A stretch of 59,997 nucleotides of DNA, filler included. It is 4 parts of 4 records of this genome, joined end to end, with 100 filler letters (N's around TTAATTAATTAA, not from the genome) between each part and the next. Parts side by side here need not be neighbours in the genome. Positions count along the whole stretch, not along the records: positions 10,252 to 26,273 come from SRR31156797_20798; 3 more parts are not named here. One strand, written 5' to 3'. Under the pieces are notes generated by a model. The model was not told the DNA's origin and did no database searches. It saw only the letters and a program-made list of their open reading frames with translations. Shown piece by piece: positions 10,152 through 38,330 of the stretch. Numbering within the stretch: position 1 is the stretch's first letter; each line of letters opens with the position of its first letter. Position numbers and translations under genes: made by a program.

Positions 10152-10251
10152 NNNNNNNNNNNNNNNNNNNNNNNNNNNNNNNNNNNNNNNNNNNNTTAAT
10201 TAATTAANNNNNNNNNNNNNNNNNNNNNNNNNNNNNNNNNNNNNNNNNNNN
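10152..10251. other. Artificial contig linker
   Basis: N-run with TTAATTAATTAA (stops in all frames); base composition changes across it. Confidence 0.98.
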
Positions 10252-12745: not shown

Positions 12746-13684
12746 ATGAAAAAGCAGTTAGTGAAGTTACTTGTCTGCCCTATTTGTCTGCCAATTGAAT
12801 TTCCGTTAACCGCAGATATCGTAACTGAAACCAATGGCGATATTGAGACCGGCAGCCTTACCTGCCCTTCCTGTATGTCATCCTTTCCAATTGTTGATGG
12901 AATTGCCAATCTGGATCCAAGGCATGCCCCGGCTGCAATGGCCGGTAATAAATATGAAACAGATACAGTAGTAGCCTCCTATCTCTGGAGCCATTTTAGT
13001 GAGCTCATGGGGGATGAACAGAGTTCCAAGGCTTATTCCACATGGGCTGGGTTAATGAAACCCGATGGAGGTATTTCCCTGGATGTAGGAGGGGCTGTGG
13101 GACGTTTTTCCTTTGAAATGAGTGAACGTTCCGACCTCGCTATAGGAGTCGATAACTCGGTGGCATTTATCCGGGCAGCTCGTCAGCTGATGAAGGAGAG
13201 AGCGATAACTCTACGCATCAAGGATGAAGGACATAGTACTAAAGACTTTCCCATAAAATTACCTGATCGTTTTAATAGCGAAAAGGTGGAATTCATTGTT
13301 GCAAATGCACTGGCCTTACCTTTTCGCGAGGACGGCATAAGCTCATTTTCCTCACTCAACCTGGTGGATAAAGTTCCTTCGCCGATGAAGCATCTGCAGG
13401 AAATGAATAGGATAGTACGAAAAAAGCATGGGCAATTCTTACTTTCAGATCCCTTCTCCTGGTCGGAAGATGCCGCACCGGTTGAAGAGTGGCTGGGTGG
13501 CCAACCTGATGGCCCGTACTCAGGTAAAGGCATTGAGAACATAAGCAGACTTCTACAGGATTCCAAAGGAGAACTGCAACCTCCATGGAGGGTGAGTGAG
13601 CCGGATAAGGTATGGTGGAAGATCCGCACTCATACCAACCATTATGAACTCATACAGAGCTGCTTTATCCATGCTGAAAGGTAG
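12746..13684 (+). CDS. Trm112-like zinc ribbon fused to a class I SAM methyltransferase resembling the OvoA C-terminal N-methyltransferase
   Basis: LLVCPIC...LTCPSC...FPIVDGIANL; then YETD..SYL..HF, LDVGGAVGRFSFE, NLVDK, SDPFSW..EEWLGG. Confidence 0.8.
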   Translation: MKKQLVKLLVCPICLPIEFPLTADIVTETNGDIETGSLTCPSCMSSFPIVDGIANLDPRHAPAAMAGNKYETDTVVASYLWSHFSELMGDEQSSKAYSTWAGLMKPDGGISLDVGGAVGRFSFEMSERSDLAIGVDNSVAFIRAARQLMKERAITLRIKDEGHSTKDFPIKLPDRFNSEKVEFIVANALALPFREDGISSFSSLNLVDKVPSPMKHLQEMNRIVRKKHGQFLLSDPFSWSEDAAPVEEWLGGQPDGPYSGKGIENISRLLQDSKGELQPPWRVSEPDKVWWKIRTHTNHYELIQSCFIHAER

Positions 13685-13712
13685 TTGAAAACTGTTACTA
13701 CAGGAGTAAACA

Positions 13713-15770
13713 ATGATTCACGATACTATTTGTCGCCTCTGTTCCTCATGCTGCCCTATCGAGGCAGAGGTTCAAGAGGGACGTTTGATTGCGGCCTGGA
13801 GAAAATCGTTTCTTGAAGCAGATAAACGACGGGTTTGTCCCAAGCTCAATCACGCGCCTGATATTGTCTATTCGGATCAGCGACTAAAAACACCACTGAT
13901 CAAAGAAGAGGACGGTAGTTTTCGAGAGGCGAACTGGGAAGAAGCTCTCAACAAGGTAGCCCGGATGATGAAAAGGCATAAAAGCAATTCCGGTCCGGAA
14001 TCTGTTGCCTGGTTGCGTGGTATGGCTGCCGATTGGGGCGCACCCTGGGACTATCCCAACCGCTTAATGCATTGCTTCGGTTCTCCCAATACCATTGGAA
14101 ACGGTTCAATCTGTTTTGTGGCCCGTGATTTTGCCCATACCTATACCTATGGGTCCATGGCTTTTCCGGAAGCAAAGAATGCTAAATGTATCATCGTTTG
14201 GGGAAAACAGGACGGTAATACGGCTTTAGGTGCAGCAGAGGGGATTGCACATGCTCAGGCAAACGGGGCAACATTGATTGTTGTCGATCCGGTTAAAACA
14301 CGTTTGGCTGCAAAAGCTGACTTGTGGCTTCAGATAAAACCGGGCCATGATCCATTGCTGGCAATGGCCATGATCCATGAAATTATCCAGCAGGACTGGT
14401 GTGATACGGACTTTATTGAAAAGTATACCACCGGCTTTGATAAACTGAGAGCCATTGCTTCCGACTATTCTCCAAAGATTGTCGCCGAGGATATCTGGTT
14501 GACTGCTGAGCAGATTACGGAGGCAGCTCGTCTGTATGCTACTACCAAACCAGCCTCGATCGTGGACGGTAACGGGCTGGATATGCATCGTGAAGTGTTT
14601 GATTCCACGCGCTCAGTGGCTATGCTCAGGGCAATTACCGGCAACCTGGACGTACAGGGTGGAGATGTGATTCCACAACCGGTTCCGGTCCGCAATATCC
14701 AGATGAAGGAGAGGTTGGCAGAGGAGAGCGAGCCGATTACACGTGATTATCCCCTTTTCAATACATTCAGTGAAACCTGGGGTAATCAGGTTCAGGGCTG
14801 TATCATCAACGCAATTCTGGAAAAGGAACCGTACCCGCTGAAAATGGTAGTAGTTCAGTCCGGCAACCCTCTTGTGACCATGGCGGATTCCACCCGAACA
14901 AGACGTGCATTTGAGCAGGTGGAATCTCTGGTTGTAATCGATATGTTTATGACAGAGACTGCAAAGCTTGCTGATGTTGTCCTTCCTGCTTCGAGTTGTT
15001 TTGAAAAAACGCAGTTAAACAGGTCTTCAATCAGGAATAATCCCATAATCCTACAAGATGAAGTGATTAAGCCGCTCCATAGTTCCTGGCCGGATTGGAA
15101 GATTGTTTTTGAACTGGGAAGACAGCTCGGGTTTACAGAGGAGTTCCCTTGGCAATCGGCAGACGAGGCAATTGATTATCAGCTTGAGCCTACCGGTGTC
15201 ACTGTTTCGGCATTGCGTGAAAATCCCAATGGCATGAGGATAGAGGAACTTCGATATAAGAAATATGAACAGGATGGGTTTGCGACCCCTTCCGGCAAGG
15301 TAGAGTTTTTTTCCAATCGGCTCAAGGAAGTAGCTTTACCTGCAACACCACTGCAAAATGGACTTGAAAATCCTATCAGTTTCTGCGATCAGGCAAACGA
15401 ATTTCCAATGATTGGTATAAGCGGTGCCCGTGATATCCGATTCACCAACTCGCAATTTTTTACCATTACCAGTTTAAGGGAAAAAGGGGCAAGCTGCGGT
15501 GTTGATATCCATCCTGATGATGCTGAAAAACTCAATATAAGCGAAGGGGCACAGGTAGCCATTGTCACCCCAAAAGGAAAGATTGAAATGGAGGCCCGAT
15601 TTTCAACTATTGTACGGCCAGGATCCGTCCGGCTCGCATGGGGATGGGGTGATTACAGACCGGAAAAAGGCCTCAACTTACTGACAGAGGATGGAAAGCG
15701 CGGGGCTGTTACCGGTACATCCACATGTCGATCTTTTATGTGTCGAGTGGAGCCATTGATGGACTTTTAA
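13713..15770 (+). CDS. Molybdo/tungsto-bis-PGD enzyme (acetylene hydratase/DMSO reductase superfamily), cytoplasmic
   Basis: CRLCSSCC..C [4Fe-4S] motif, RLKTPL, ETAKLADVVLP, TPSGKVEF, molydop-binding C-domain; no Tat signal; AGGAG RBS. Confidence 0.9.
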   Translation: MIHDTICRLCSSCCPIEAEVQEGRLIAAWRKSFLEADKRRVCPKLNHAPDIVYSDQRLKTPLIKEEDGSFREANWEEALNKVARMMKRHKSNSGPESVAWLRGMAADWGAPWDYPNRLMHCFGSPNTIGNGSICFVARDFAHTYTYGSMAFPEAKNAKCIIVWGKQDGNTALGAAEGIAHAQANGATLIVVDPVKTRLAAKADLWLQIKPGHDPLLAMAMIHEIIQQDWCDTDFIEKYTTGFDKLRAIASDYSPKIVAEDIWLTAEQITEAARLYATTKPASIVDGNGLDMHREVFDSTRSVAMLRAITGNLDVQGGDVIPQPVPVRNIQMKERLAEESEPITRDYPLFNTFSETWGNQVQGCIINAILEKEPYPLKMVVVQSGNPLVTMADSTRTRRAFEQVESLVVIDMFMTETAKLADVVLPASSCFEKTQLNRSSIRNNPIILQDEVIKPLHSSWPDWKIVFELGRQLGFTEEFPWQSADEAIDYQLEPTGVTVSALRENPNGMRIEELRYKKYEQDGFATPSGKVEFFSNRLKEVALPATPLQNGLENPISFCDQANEFPMIGISGARDIRFTNSQFFTITSLREKGASCGVDIHPDDAEKLNISEGAQVAIVTPKGKIEMEARFSTIVRPGSVRLAWGWGDYRPEKGLNLLTEDGKRGAVTGTSTCRSFMCRVEPLMDF

Positions 15771-19903: not shown

Positions 19904-20851
19904 ATGATAATAAGCGCAAGCCGGAGAACTGATATACCTGCATTTTACTCTGAGTGGTTTATGAATAGGCTCAGACAAGGGTTTGTTTATACTCAAAATC
20001 CATTTAACAAAAGATTGATCTCAAAAGTTTCCCTTTCTCCTGATCGAATTTCATGCATTGTTTTTTGGACCAAAAATCCTGAAAATTTATTGAAACATTT
20101 ACCTGAAATAAATCGAATGGGGCATGAATACTATTTCCATTTTACCCTCACTTCTTATGACTCAGGTATTGAGGGAAGTGTCCCTAAAAAAACTACAGTT
20201 ATAGAAACTTTTAAAAGGCTAGCAGAGCAAGTTGGAAATGAAAAAATAATATGGAGGTACGATCCGGTTTTTTTGACGAACAAATATGATATTCCATACC
20301 ACCTGAAATGGTATGAATATCTGGCCAAACAACTTAATGGCCATACTACCAAATGCATATTCAGCTTTCTCAACATGTACAAAAAATGCGAAAAAAACCT
20401 TAAGGATGTTTATATCCATACATTGAGTGATGGGCACAAAAGCTATCTAGTAAAAAATTTTCACAGTATTGCCCAATCATGCTCTATAAGCCTGGAAGCA
20501 TGTGCTCAAGAAGAATGTTTTGAGGAAATTGGGGTCTCCCAAGCAAAATGCATAGACCACAATCTGGTCTCAACGTTGAATTGCAGGCAACTGTTTTACC
20601 CAAAAGATAAAAATCAACGTAAGCATTGTGCTTGTGCTACCAGTGTGGATATAGGAGCATACAATACATGTAAAAATTTTTGCTTATACTGTTACGCAAA
20701 CAGTAGCAGGAAATCAGTATTGAATAACACTGAAGCCCATAATGTGAATTCTCCTCTTCTTATCGGTTTTCCCAGCGGCAAAGAAAAAATTATAGACAAA
20801 AAAGTTATTGGCGGCAAAGGTGTGCAACTACAACTCTTTAGCAAAAGATAG
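19904..20851 (+). CDS. DUF1848 family protein
   Basis: MIISASRRTDIPAFY, FWTKNP, WRYDP, DIGAYNTC..C.YCYA. Confidence 0.92.
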   Translation: MIISASRRTDIPAFYSEWFMNRLRQGFVYTQNPFNKRLISKVSLSPDRISCIVFWTKNPENLLKHLPEINRMGHEYYFHFTLTSYDSGIEGSVPKKTTVIETFKRLAEQVGNEKIIWRYDPVFLTNKYDIPYHLKWYEYLAKQLNGHTTKCIFSFLNMYKKCEKNLKDVYIHTLSDGHKSYLVKNFHSIAQSCSISLEACAQEECFEEIGVSQAKCIDHNLVSTLNCRQLFYPKDKNQRKHCACATSVDIGAYNTCKNFCLYCYANSSRKSVLNNTEAHNVNSPLLIGFPSGKEKIIDKKVIGGKGVQLQLFSKR

Positions 20852-21429: not shown

Positions 21430-21924
21430 ATGCTGCCAGAAGAAATGAGGGAAAAAGCGATAGGATTATTTTTAAAACGACTGCATTGCAGTCAGGTTAT
21501 CGCCTCAGTTGGATTGGAAAAAATGTCCATTGATGACCCCTCGGTCATTAAGGCACTGGGATCTTTTGGAGGAGGTATCGGTGGTACCGGCAACATTTGC
21601 GGAGCCTTGGTGGGAGCCGTCAGTACCATTGGTACTCTGTACAGTCGAGGTAGTCTGGAAGAAAAAGAGAATCCTCGGATGTGGGCTGCAACAAAGAAGG
21701 TCATGAAAAATTTCGAGGAGCTGACCGCAGTTCACGGCGGCATCAACTGCTGTCAGATAGCCCGAGTCGACTGGATGGACCGAGAGCAGGTGAAAGATTT
21801 TTACGGTAATCCTGAAAGCCGTAGGCAACATTGCATTGCAGTCGTTGGTGATACAGCCAAAGCACTGGGCGAACTGCTGGAGCAGGAAGCGGAGCGAACC
21901 GCCGAAAAAAAAGCCACTAAATAA
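21430..21924 (+). CDS. C-GCAxxG-C-C family putative redox protein
   Basis: HCSQ, FGGGIG..GNICGALVGA, NCCQI, HC; GGAGG RBS. Confidence 0.88.
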   Translation: MLPEEMREKAIGLFLKRLHCSQVIASVGLEKMSIDDPSVIKALGSFGGGIGGTGNICGALVGAVSTIGTLYSRGSLEEKENPRMWAATKKVMKNFEELTAVHGGINCCQIARVDWMDREQVKDFYGNPESRRQHCIAVVGDTAKALGELLEQEAERTAEKKATK

Positions 21925-26273: not shown

Positions 26274-26373
26274 NNNNNNNNNNNNNNNNNNNNNNNNNNN
26301 NNNNNNNNNNNNNNNNNTTAATTAATTAANNNNNNNNNNNNNNNNNNNNNNNNNNNNNNNNNNNNNNNNNNNN
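26274..26373. other. Artificial contig linker
   Basis: N-run with TTAATTAATTAA. Confidence 0.98.
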
Positions 26374-38230: not shown

Positions 38231-38330
38231 NNNNNNNNNNNNNNNNNNNNNNNNNNNNNNNNNNNNNNNNNNNNTTAATTAATTAANNNNNNNNNNNNNN
38301 NNNNNNNNNNNNNNNNNNNNNNNNNNNNNN
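38231..38330. other. Artificial contig linker
   Basis: N-run with TTAATTAATTAA. Confidence 0.98.

Follow-up and report, generated by a model that had tools for sequence, protein, structure and literature searches.

A Trm112-fused OvoM-like methyltransferase and a stand-alone metallopterin enzyme form a conserved gene pair with a candidate role in oxygen-independent imidazole modification

As far as PMC12631010 and PMC11030361 describe them, the known routes to 5-thiohistidine, ovothiol and ovoselenol all use O2-dependent non-haem-iron enzymes, and the methyltransferase OvsM does not methylate free histidine (PMC11030361). PMC9516567 presents the ergothioneine enzyme MES as unique among known Mo enzymes in forming a C–S bond. 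It defines the MES architecture (Beliaeva & Seebeck) as a Mo module fused to a desulfurase, and predicts that orphan molybdoenzymes perhaps sulfurise heterocycles. A literature search, with Supplement Table S1 of that paper (~80 genomes) outside its range, returned no account of ovothiol-type compounds being made by a methyltransferase together with a metallopterin enzyme. Here, we analyse a 59,997-base stretch of DNA (the window) in which two adjacent genes encode such a combination. Gene 1 specifies a Trm112-like zinc ribbon joined to an OvoM/OvsM-like S-adenosylmethionine (SAM)-dependent N-methyltransferase, and gene 2, directly downstream, a metallopterin enzyme that we call Mo1. The methyltransferase–Mo1 pair is a real uncharacterised two-enzyme module. 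Judged from sequence, it may be a two-enzyme, O2-independent pathway to an N-methylated heteroaromatic, most likely a methylated thio- or selenohistidine of the ovothiol/ergothioneine class; we give this reading a probability of roughly 35%.

The two open reading frames (ORFs) lie on the same strand, exactly as a first-pass annotation of the locus had described them in calling a two-gene operon. Gene 1 (P0001; 12746..13684, + strand) encodes 312 residues and was delimited by its ORF, translation, Pfam, NCBIfam, PDB sequence search and Foldseek. It is separated from gene 2 by a 28-nucleotide (nt) intergenic spacer of operon-like length (13685..13712, +, from the ORF coordinates). Gene 2 (P0002; 13713..15770, +) encodes Mo1, a 685-residue cytoplasmic Mo/W enzyme of the bis-molybdopterin guanine dinucleotide (bis-MGD) type with an N-terminal 4Fe-4S motif, as read from its translation, Pfam and PDB matches.

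Gene 1 begins with the Trm112-like zinc ribbon (residues 2-52; 12749..12901, +). This domain is recognised by Pfam (PF03966, Trm112p, E 7e-8), by NCBIfam (Trm112_arch, E 7e-12) and in the PDB (6zxw_H, E 1.5e-8), the Trm112 matches spanning the N-terminal 59 residues. In alignment A1, which holds 16 family members, its cysteines C11, C14, C40 and C43 are invariant. Pfam places Methyltransf_11/25/31 C-terminal to the ribbon, and the methyltransferase domain (residues 70-305; 12953..13660, +) was bounded by TIGR04345, the A1 motifs and alignments with OvsM and OvoA. TIGR04345 (ovoA_Cterm, NCBIfam) matches gene 1 with E 1.4e-25 and 90.3 bits over model positions 1-235 of 242; the next-best methyltransferase family reaches only E 3.6e-4. 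Among solved structures, OvsM (9bxh, 1.5e-16), the C-domain of OvoA (8khq, 4.3e-16) and OvoM (9bxl, 1.7e-14) are the only methyltransferases found at better than E 1e-5. An AlphaFold model of only moderate confidence (mean pLDDT, the predicted local distance difference test, 70.8) served as Foldseek input, and its ten top rows were all OvoA, OvsM or OvoM (E 1e-12 to 4e-11; template-modelling score 0.73-0.78 against the stand-alone enzymes). Nicotinamide N-methyltransferase came next at 2e-7, four to five logs weaker.

The comparison with the OvoA C-domain that had been proposed for gene 1 thus places it in the OvoA-C/OvoM/OvsM superfamily by hidden Markov model, PDB sequence search and fold. 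The motifs named in the first-pass annotation (YETD..SY..H, D.G.AVGR.SFE, EG, NL.D, PFSW...WLGG and IR, following the Trm112-like ribbon) are likewise seen in the alignments and are invariant in the 16 members. In gene 1 numbering, the invariant positions include Y70-E71, Y79, D113.G.AVGR120, E161-G162, N205-L-x-D208, P236-F-S-W239 and W249-L-G-G252. These motifs, including those outside the SAM site, are common to OvsM and OvoA in the PDB alignments. The gene 1 product most likely methylates a ring nitrogen of a histidine-like imidazole. Its homologues number 747, and the best 120 listed are 60-75% identical and nearly all 310-313 residues long. A search for longer, fused relatives gave no match at E <= 0.001, and being word-based it is weak evidence. 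Weak matches to ArsM-type models were also seen (NCBIfam, E 0.003-0.013).

Mo1 carries the Pfam domains Molybdop_Fe4S4 (PF04879), Molybdopterin (PF00384) and Molydop_binding (PF01568) and ends after the last of these, with no fused pyridoxal phosphate (PLP) desulfurase. Its 4Fe-4S cysteines, C7, C10, C14 and C42 (13731..13838, +), start at residue 7; Mo1 therefore has no twin-arginine translocation (Tat) signal. Their columns are kept in 60 Mo1 orthologues, six Mo2 enzymes (described below), nine MES fusions and 90-96% of the 126 nearest cluster representatives. Within the same segment lies C13, present in 100% of the 60 Mo1 sequences versus 2% of those representatives. Column conservation also picks out C363 (14799-14801) and C429 (14997-14999), which bound a stretch of putative function (14799..14999, +); they occur in 100% and 93% of Mo1 versus 2% and 6% of the representatives. 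Cys134 (14112..14114, +) is the predicted Mo/W ligand. It aligns with the ligand-loop cysteine of acetylene hydratase (GSPN...C) and with the corresponding cysteine of an MES-like fusion, and is invariant in Mo1, Mo2 and MES. The position of acetylene hydratase Asp13, the catalytic residue adjoining the second Fe-S cysteine, is Ser11 in Mo1, with C13 two residues further on.

Pfam, the N-terminus and the gene neighbourhood agree with the earlier description of gene 2 as a bis-pyranopterin guanine dinucleotide enzyme with neither Tat signal nor Fe-S or membrane partners. The view that it is unlikely to be respiratory is supported as well, in that no curated respiratory reductase model in NCBIfam reaches its threshold: the best scores are for PhsA (NF012032; 280 bits, cut-off 694) and Fdh-alpha, and every score against curated reductase or dehydrogenase models is far under its cut-off. 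The statement that no cysteine desulfurase is fused is borne out by where Mo1 ends, and none lies in the contig neighbourhood. The ESM Atlas gave only generic names ('acetylene hydratase / anaerobic dehydrogenase family'). A predicted complex of Mo1 with the methyltransferase scored 0.00; run without controls and without our alignments, this says nothing for or against binding.

The pairing is strongly conserved. A genome scan with alignment A1 as query (a single-protein query retrieved none) found 172 methyltransferase relatives, of which the best 80 were kept. In 70 of the 80, a Mo1 orthologue (56-80% identity) adjoins the methyltransferase, almost without exception as the next gene downstream in the same orientation. 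Another three loci stop too near the methyltransferase gene for judging, so that the count is 70 of 77 informative loci; the seven without Mo1 are L029, L035, L037, L038, L053, L067 and L073. Among the paired loci, L063 is convergent, L041 holds only a 5' Mo1 fragment and L031 appears frameshifted. The spacers are mostly ~10 to 60 nt, measured between the tblastn matches of both genes. At the 80 related loci, nothing beyond the two genes is conserved in the surroundings, and no ars, sel, transporter or PsrB/PsrC-like gene recurs there.

A second sample, 401 evenly drawn Desulfobacterota genomes with only two Mo1 candidates scored per genome, gave the same picture. The methyltransferase family (39-75% identity, full length) is present in 36 genomes and Mo1 orthologues (at least 52% identity) in 13, each of them directly beside the methyltransferase (13/13). 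Mo1-only genomes were absent among the 13 Mo1-positive ones. The pair is distributed over Desulfobulbales, Syntrophales and relatives, with cultured hosts in Desulfopila sp. IMCC35008, Desulfogranum mediterraneum DSM 13871, Desulfobulbus elongatus DSM 2908 and Syntrophus buswellii DM-2. Conservation of the gene pair, which the first-pass annotation had set up as a check, is thus seen in both samples, and the pair is very probably a real, selected two-enzyme unit.

A parallel comes from the 23 genomes that contain the methyltransferase and lack Mo1, 20 of which were fetched for inspection of neighbouring genes. A sister clade of Trm112-fused methyltransferases (39-42% identical to the window's gene 1; support 100 in the Shimodaira–Hasegawa-like approximate likelihood ratio test, SH-aLRT) is followed directly downstream by a different stand-alone metallopterin enzyme, Mo2, of 736 residues and without a fused desulfurase. 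The sister clades of gene 1 within the family score 112-114 bits on TIGR04345. Aligned over its full length with the metallopterin module of an MES fusion that adjoins EgtD, Mo2 shows 47% identity (681 bits). In a FastTree analysis of 160 sequences, the nine MES fusions, Mo2 and four solo forms make up one clade (support 100). The Mo2 clade itself (68-100% identity, ~740-residue frames) occurs in six of the 401 genomes and beside the methyltransferase in all six, the methyltransferase match of G366 being split at a contig end. The Mo2 pair is found in genome loci L137 (6079-9254), L135, L136, L138, L139 and L141 and in metagenome loci L163-L227. Scanning metagenomes with a Mo2 alignment yielded 67 loci; 15 without the Mo2 5' end, four with < 300 nt upstream and one non-Mo2 locus were excluded. 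The methyltransferase is directly upstream in 42 of the 47 informative loci (gap 14-143 nt) and is not in the other five.

All 33 full-length Mo2 ORFs end with a basic linker and LGC[V/G/A]G. In MES, the C-terminal relay cysteine is essential (PMC9516567). By analogy, the Mo2 tail is plausible as a mobile, swinging persulfide arm in its place. As a candidate for making a methyl-thiohistidine anaerobically, the Mo2 pair may be stronger than the Mo1 pair. One methyltransferase family with an MES-clade enzyme in one branch and Mo1 in another, in the same order and at the same spacing, is most readily understood if one step was taken over by a non-orthologous enzyme. This parallel gives the thio-imidazole idea independent support at the family level, real if indirect.

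On the favoured reading, an O2-independent route to a methylated thio- or selenohistidine, the two enzymes would act as follows. The methyltransferase would methylate an imidazole nitrogen. Mo1, with a Cys134-ligated bis-MGD centre and one 4Fe-4S cluster, would functionalise a ring carbon; our preferred mechanism is the one proposed for MES, in which a Mo(VI)=S species donates the sulfur. That sulfur would be delivered in trans, possibly by way of the Mo1-specific cysteines C13, C363 and C429. Methylation possibly comes first, like EgtD then MES. The occurrence of methyltransferase-only genomes and of no Mo1-only genome among the 13 with Mo1, together with the gene order, fits an order in which the substrate is methylated and then functionalised; the OvoA order fits less well. 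Free histidine, however, is not methylated by OvsM (PMC11030361). The same pattern of loss fits a Mo enzyme that needs the product of the methyltransferase. The opposite sequence, Mo enzyme first and methyltransferase last, which the first-pass annotation had implied, fits poorly, because the methyltransferase survives the loss of Mo1.

Most of the results in this and the next three paragraphs weigh against that reading. The best solved relatives of Mo1 are acetylene hydratase (2e7z, 2.2e-66, 228 bits) and PsrA (2vpw, 5.9e-60). NCBIfam holds no model for MES, and MES was represented by nine EgtD-linked fusions from Desulfobacterota rather than by CaMES. With phmmer, Mo1 lies at about equal distance from MES (209 bits), acetylene hydratase (228) and PsrA (206.5). 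An exhaustive HMMER search with Mo1 returned 13,521 homologues, and its 150th-best representative scored 283 bits versus 209 for MES. In the FastTree analysis, Mo1 forms a clade separate from MES and Mo2, and 109 of the 126 representatives are nearer to Mo1 than any MES-like row is. An MES signature was defined as 75 columns at least 93% conserved in MES and Mo2 and < 25% in the representatives. The window's Mo1 has five of these 75 residues, the Mo1 family a mean of 6.7 and the 126 nearest representatives 6.7 +/- 3.7; the signature columns matched in the window's Mo1 include T127 and G129, in the loop ahead of Cys134.

The first-pass suggestion that gene 2 is MES-like is thus not supported, on three counts: its separate clade, bit scores about equal to those for acetylene hydratase and PsrA, and 5/75 signature residues. 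Its broader proposal, that a metallopterin enzyme replaces the sulfoxide synthase, is supported in part. The imagined architecture is real in the sister clade, with Mo2, and the window's own Mo1 is not MES-like in any specific way. Sulfur supply is a further difficulty. In MES, sulfur delivery was found to require the fused desulfurase (PMC9516567), and Mo1 has neither a desulfurase nor the tail of Mo2; no sulfur-donor gene is conserved near the pair.

On the methyltransferase side, the 90.3 bits of gene 1 are under the curated TIGR04345 cut-off of 170. In a quick IQ-TREE analysis (LG+G4, 104 rows), the family forms its own clade apart from the true OvoA C-domain, and methyltransferase-only lineages are nested inside the Mo1-associated clade (SH-aLRT 85). 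This nesting indicates secondary losses of Mo1, and since the methyltransferase is kept where Mo1 was lost, it must have a role without Mo1. Five methyltransferase-only genomes searched whole gave a best Mo1-like match of 33% identity, and none of the five had an OvoA N-domain over cut-off. Of five genomes with the pair, one has an OvoA N-domain over cut-off, at a distant locus. This is the sulfate reducer Desulfogranum mediterraneum, which encodes a canonical full OvoA besides the pair (L140, G164:C16:41816-43891; 711-residue frame, domains at 685 and 343 bits). The expectation that the pair is confined to genomes without OvoA is contradicted by this one genome in five. EgtB was over cut-off in none of five genomes tested. 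EgtD (PF10017) was found in 36 of the 401 Desulfobacterota genomes and in none of the 13 with Mo1.

A third methyltransferase clade (40-47% identical to gene 1; L120-L125, L130, L131 and L134) sits instead between genes for a B12-binding radical SAM protein and a Peptidase_M19. The radical SAM gene, of 670-690 residues, is upstream in seven of these loci, and its best NCBIfam match is ApyD-like, under cut-off. The Peptidase_M19 dipeptidase gene is directly downstream in six; one further, divergent copy lies in a Mo2 locus. Syntrophus also has sub-threshold TIGR04345-like paralogues, whose neighbours are unrelated or without a Pfam match.

Several other loci bear on these families. The second methyltransferase paralogue of Syntrophus is ~370 residues long, scores 101-115 bits on TIGR04345 and has no zinc ribbon (L118 6564-7679, L119 7110-8216). 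In two gammaproteobacterial loci of Thiotrichales type, L041 (1317-1847) and L029, the methyltransferase is intact and Mo1 is a 176-residue fragment or absent, respectively, which suggests decay of Mo1 after transfer. An Aminotran_5-type gene lies near the third-clade methyltransferase in L123, with a homologue in L134. EgtD with a fused MES (frames of 962-1192 residues) was seen in 25 of the 401 Desulfobacterota genomes, all of them EgtD-positive (L116 69-4516; L146-L153). Beside one EgtD, the 1166-residue fusion of a Mo module with a NifS-type desulfurase has the MES architecture, and Mo1 is 27% identical to it. Distant stand-alone MES-like genes, 40-44% identical to Mo2, carry one in-frame TGA or TAG (G173:C54:44915-47047, G319:C29:9270-11438 and G030:C296:3095-5167), which could encode selenocysteine or mark a break. 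Around four fetched genes of this distant stand-alone MES-like kind, the neighbours are of unrelated function and show no methyltransferase link.

A rival reading is that the module is real and its Mo/W chemistry is sulfur-free. Mo1 would then carry out a hydroxylation, hydration or reduction on the product or precursor of the methyltransferase, with a soluble ferredoxin or a thiol-disulfide couple, and the end product would be an N-methylated metabolite other than a thio-imidazole. We regard this as just as probable as the favoured reading, and like it well short of even odds. The nearest relatives of Mo1 (33-46% identity, ~690 residues) are unnamed and some are fused to redox domains, which points to ordinary redox enzymes. 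The nearest non-orthologue cluster representative is 46% identical and the others at most 38%, and the fusions seen among Mo1 relatives are to an FNR-like reductase, a 4Fe-4S dicluster or other domains. Relatives of ~1100 residues, considered as MES candidates, were rejected as FNR-type reductase fusions. The genes around seven Mo1 paralogues (33-36% identity) differ from locus to locus, and none of the ORFs there was matched by the methyltransferase query. Soluble single-subunit enzymes of Mo1's family can work without an encoded partner, for example the assimilatory nitrate reductases. MES signature residues are not enriched in Mo1, the curated models it scores best on are PhsA and Fdh-alpha, and the next fold match of gene 1, nicotinamide N-methyltransferase, would allow a heteroaromatic substrate other than histidine. 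Sulfur-free chemistry fits less well with the pairing of the sister-clade methyltransferase with an MES-clade enzyme, and the cysteines specific to Mo1 suit a persulfide relay equally well as a redox couple. The specific relatives of the methyltransferase all act on 5-thio- or 5-selenohistidine (PMC11030361).

The module might instead detoxify or volatilise a metalloid or chalcogen (Se, Te, As or sulfide), the Mo enzyme reducing an oxyanion or polysulfide and the methyltransferase methylating the reduced species. Among named enzymes, PsrA and PhsA rank with the best matches of Mo1, the methyltransferase has the weak ArsM-type matches noted above, and the host lineages, judged from record titles, come from sulfidic sediments. 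This explanation is nonetheless very improbable: the zinc-ribbon four are the only invariant cysteines of gene 1, whose methyltransferase domain has no conserved catalytic cysteine set, the surroundings of the pair hold no conserved ars, sel or transporter gene, and the match to TIGR04345 exceeds any to ArsM by more than 20 orders of magnitude. Least probable of all is a methyltransferase that modifies a macromolecule (tRNA, rRNA or protein) beside a merely co-transcribed or unrelated Mo enzyme, for while the Trm112-like N-terminal domain, the persistence of the methyltransferase without Mo1 in several lineages and the rRNA methyltransferase RlmA among the weaker fold matches would suit it, every Mo1 orthologue found adjoins the methyltransferase, metallopterin adjacency has arisen, or been kept, in each of two clades and with a different, unrelated Mo lineage in each, and the strong matches are all small-molecule imidazole N-methyltransferases.

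A wider claim can be made, that one methyltransferase family recruited two unrelated metallopterin lineages, and possibly B12-radical SAM enzymes too, for O2-free N-methylated thio- or selenohistidines, with Mo1 as a second independent invention of Mo/W-dependent C–S (or C–Se) bond formation. We consider it rather unlikely. Were Mo1 indeed part of an anaerobic route to a methylated thio- or selenohistidine, thio-imidazole redox metabolites would extend into strictly anoxic, sulfidic habitats. Mo1 would offer a second enzyme lineage for the study of Mo/W-mediated heterocycle sulfurisation, and its product would correspond, under anaerobic conditions, to ovothiol or to a regioisomer not seen before. 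Even with other chemistry, the pair is a defined, testable two-gene unit with cultured hosts.

The window consists of four contigs joined by N44-TTAATTAATTAA-N44 spacers at 10152-10251, 26274-26373 and 38231-38330, and the gene pair is located on the 16-kb contig at 10252-26273. The nearest relatives of both proteins are those of Desulfopila sp. IMCC35008 and Desulfogranum mediterraneum, with 75% (gene 1) and 79-80% (gene 2) amino-acid identity, and by these matches the pair contig is assigned to a member of the Desulfobulbales. The G+C content of this contig is 0.42-0.48 and that of the flanking contigs mostly 0.30-0.38; this difference, together with the difference in gene content, means that the bin behind the window may be a mixture of organisms. 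The adjoining contigs code for lipoprotein-signal and sulfatase-type proteins.

Genes flanking the pair encode a DUF6880 fragment, a small zinc-ribbon protein, a DsbA-like protein, a histidine phosphatase and an enoyl-CoA hydratase. Neither the contig neighbours nor the small ORFs of the flanking gaps include a partner of Fe-S, membrane or desulfurase type, and a search of the gaps beside the pair for small partner ORFs gave none that was convincing. Rfam had no riboswitch or RNA-leader match on the contig at E <= 1, and scans for promoter and terminator consensus gave counts at or below shuffle expectation. The same contig also encodes a DUF1848 protein (19904-20851) and a C_GCAxxG_C_C putative redox protein (21430-21924), neither conserved near the pair elsewhere.

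Set beside the described systems, Mo1 shares features with three metallopterin enzymes. PsrA and PhsA handle sulfur at their Mo centre; unlike them, Mo1 has no Tat signal and no PsrB/PsrC-like subunits nearby. Acetylene hydratase (2e7z) resembles Mo1 in domain order, Fe-S motif and Cys ligand loop and is likewise soluble and without partner subunits. It differs at the Asp13 position (Ser11), and ~150 cluster representatives of unknown function are nearer to Mo1. The system of MES and EgtD in Caldithrix abyssi (Beliaeva & Seebeck 2022, PMC9516567) likewise uses a cytoplasmic bis-MGD-type module with four Fe-S cysteines and a Cys ligand, features that are generic to this branch of the dimethyl sulfoxide reductase family. 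It is like the pair in that the Mo module lies just downstream of a SAM-dependent methyltransferase of histidine type. Mo1 is unlike MES in having an OvoM-like methyltransferase as its neighbour instead of EgtD, and in lacking the PLP desulfurase with its relay cysteines.

The methyltransferase, for its part, joins two known themes. Trm112 is a zinc-ribbon activator of eukaryotic and archaeal methyltransferases; the four-Cys ribbon is also present in gene 1, there fused in cis, and no tRNA, rRNA or release-factor methyltransferase features were found in gene 1. With the N-pi-methyltransferases of 5-thiohistidine and 5-selenohistidine (OvoA-C, OvoM and OvsM; 8khq, 9bxl-n and 9bxh-k), gene 1 has in common the D.G.AVGR SAM loop and the P[FY][ST]W...W[LI]GG motif. 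It is only ~20-30% identical to them and has the extra Trm112-like ribbon. A major difference from OvoA and OvsM is the partner: the gene 1 methyltransferase is neither fused to nor encoded with a non-haem-iron sulfoxide or selenoxide synthase, and adjoins a Mo/W enzyme instead.

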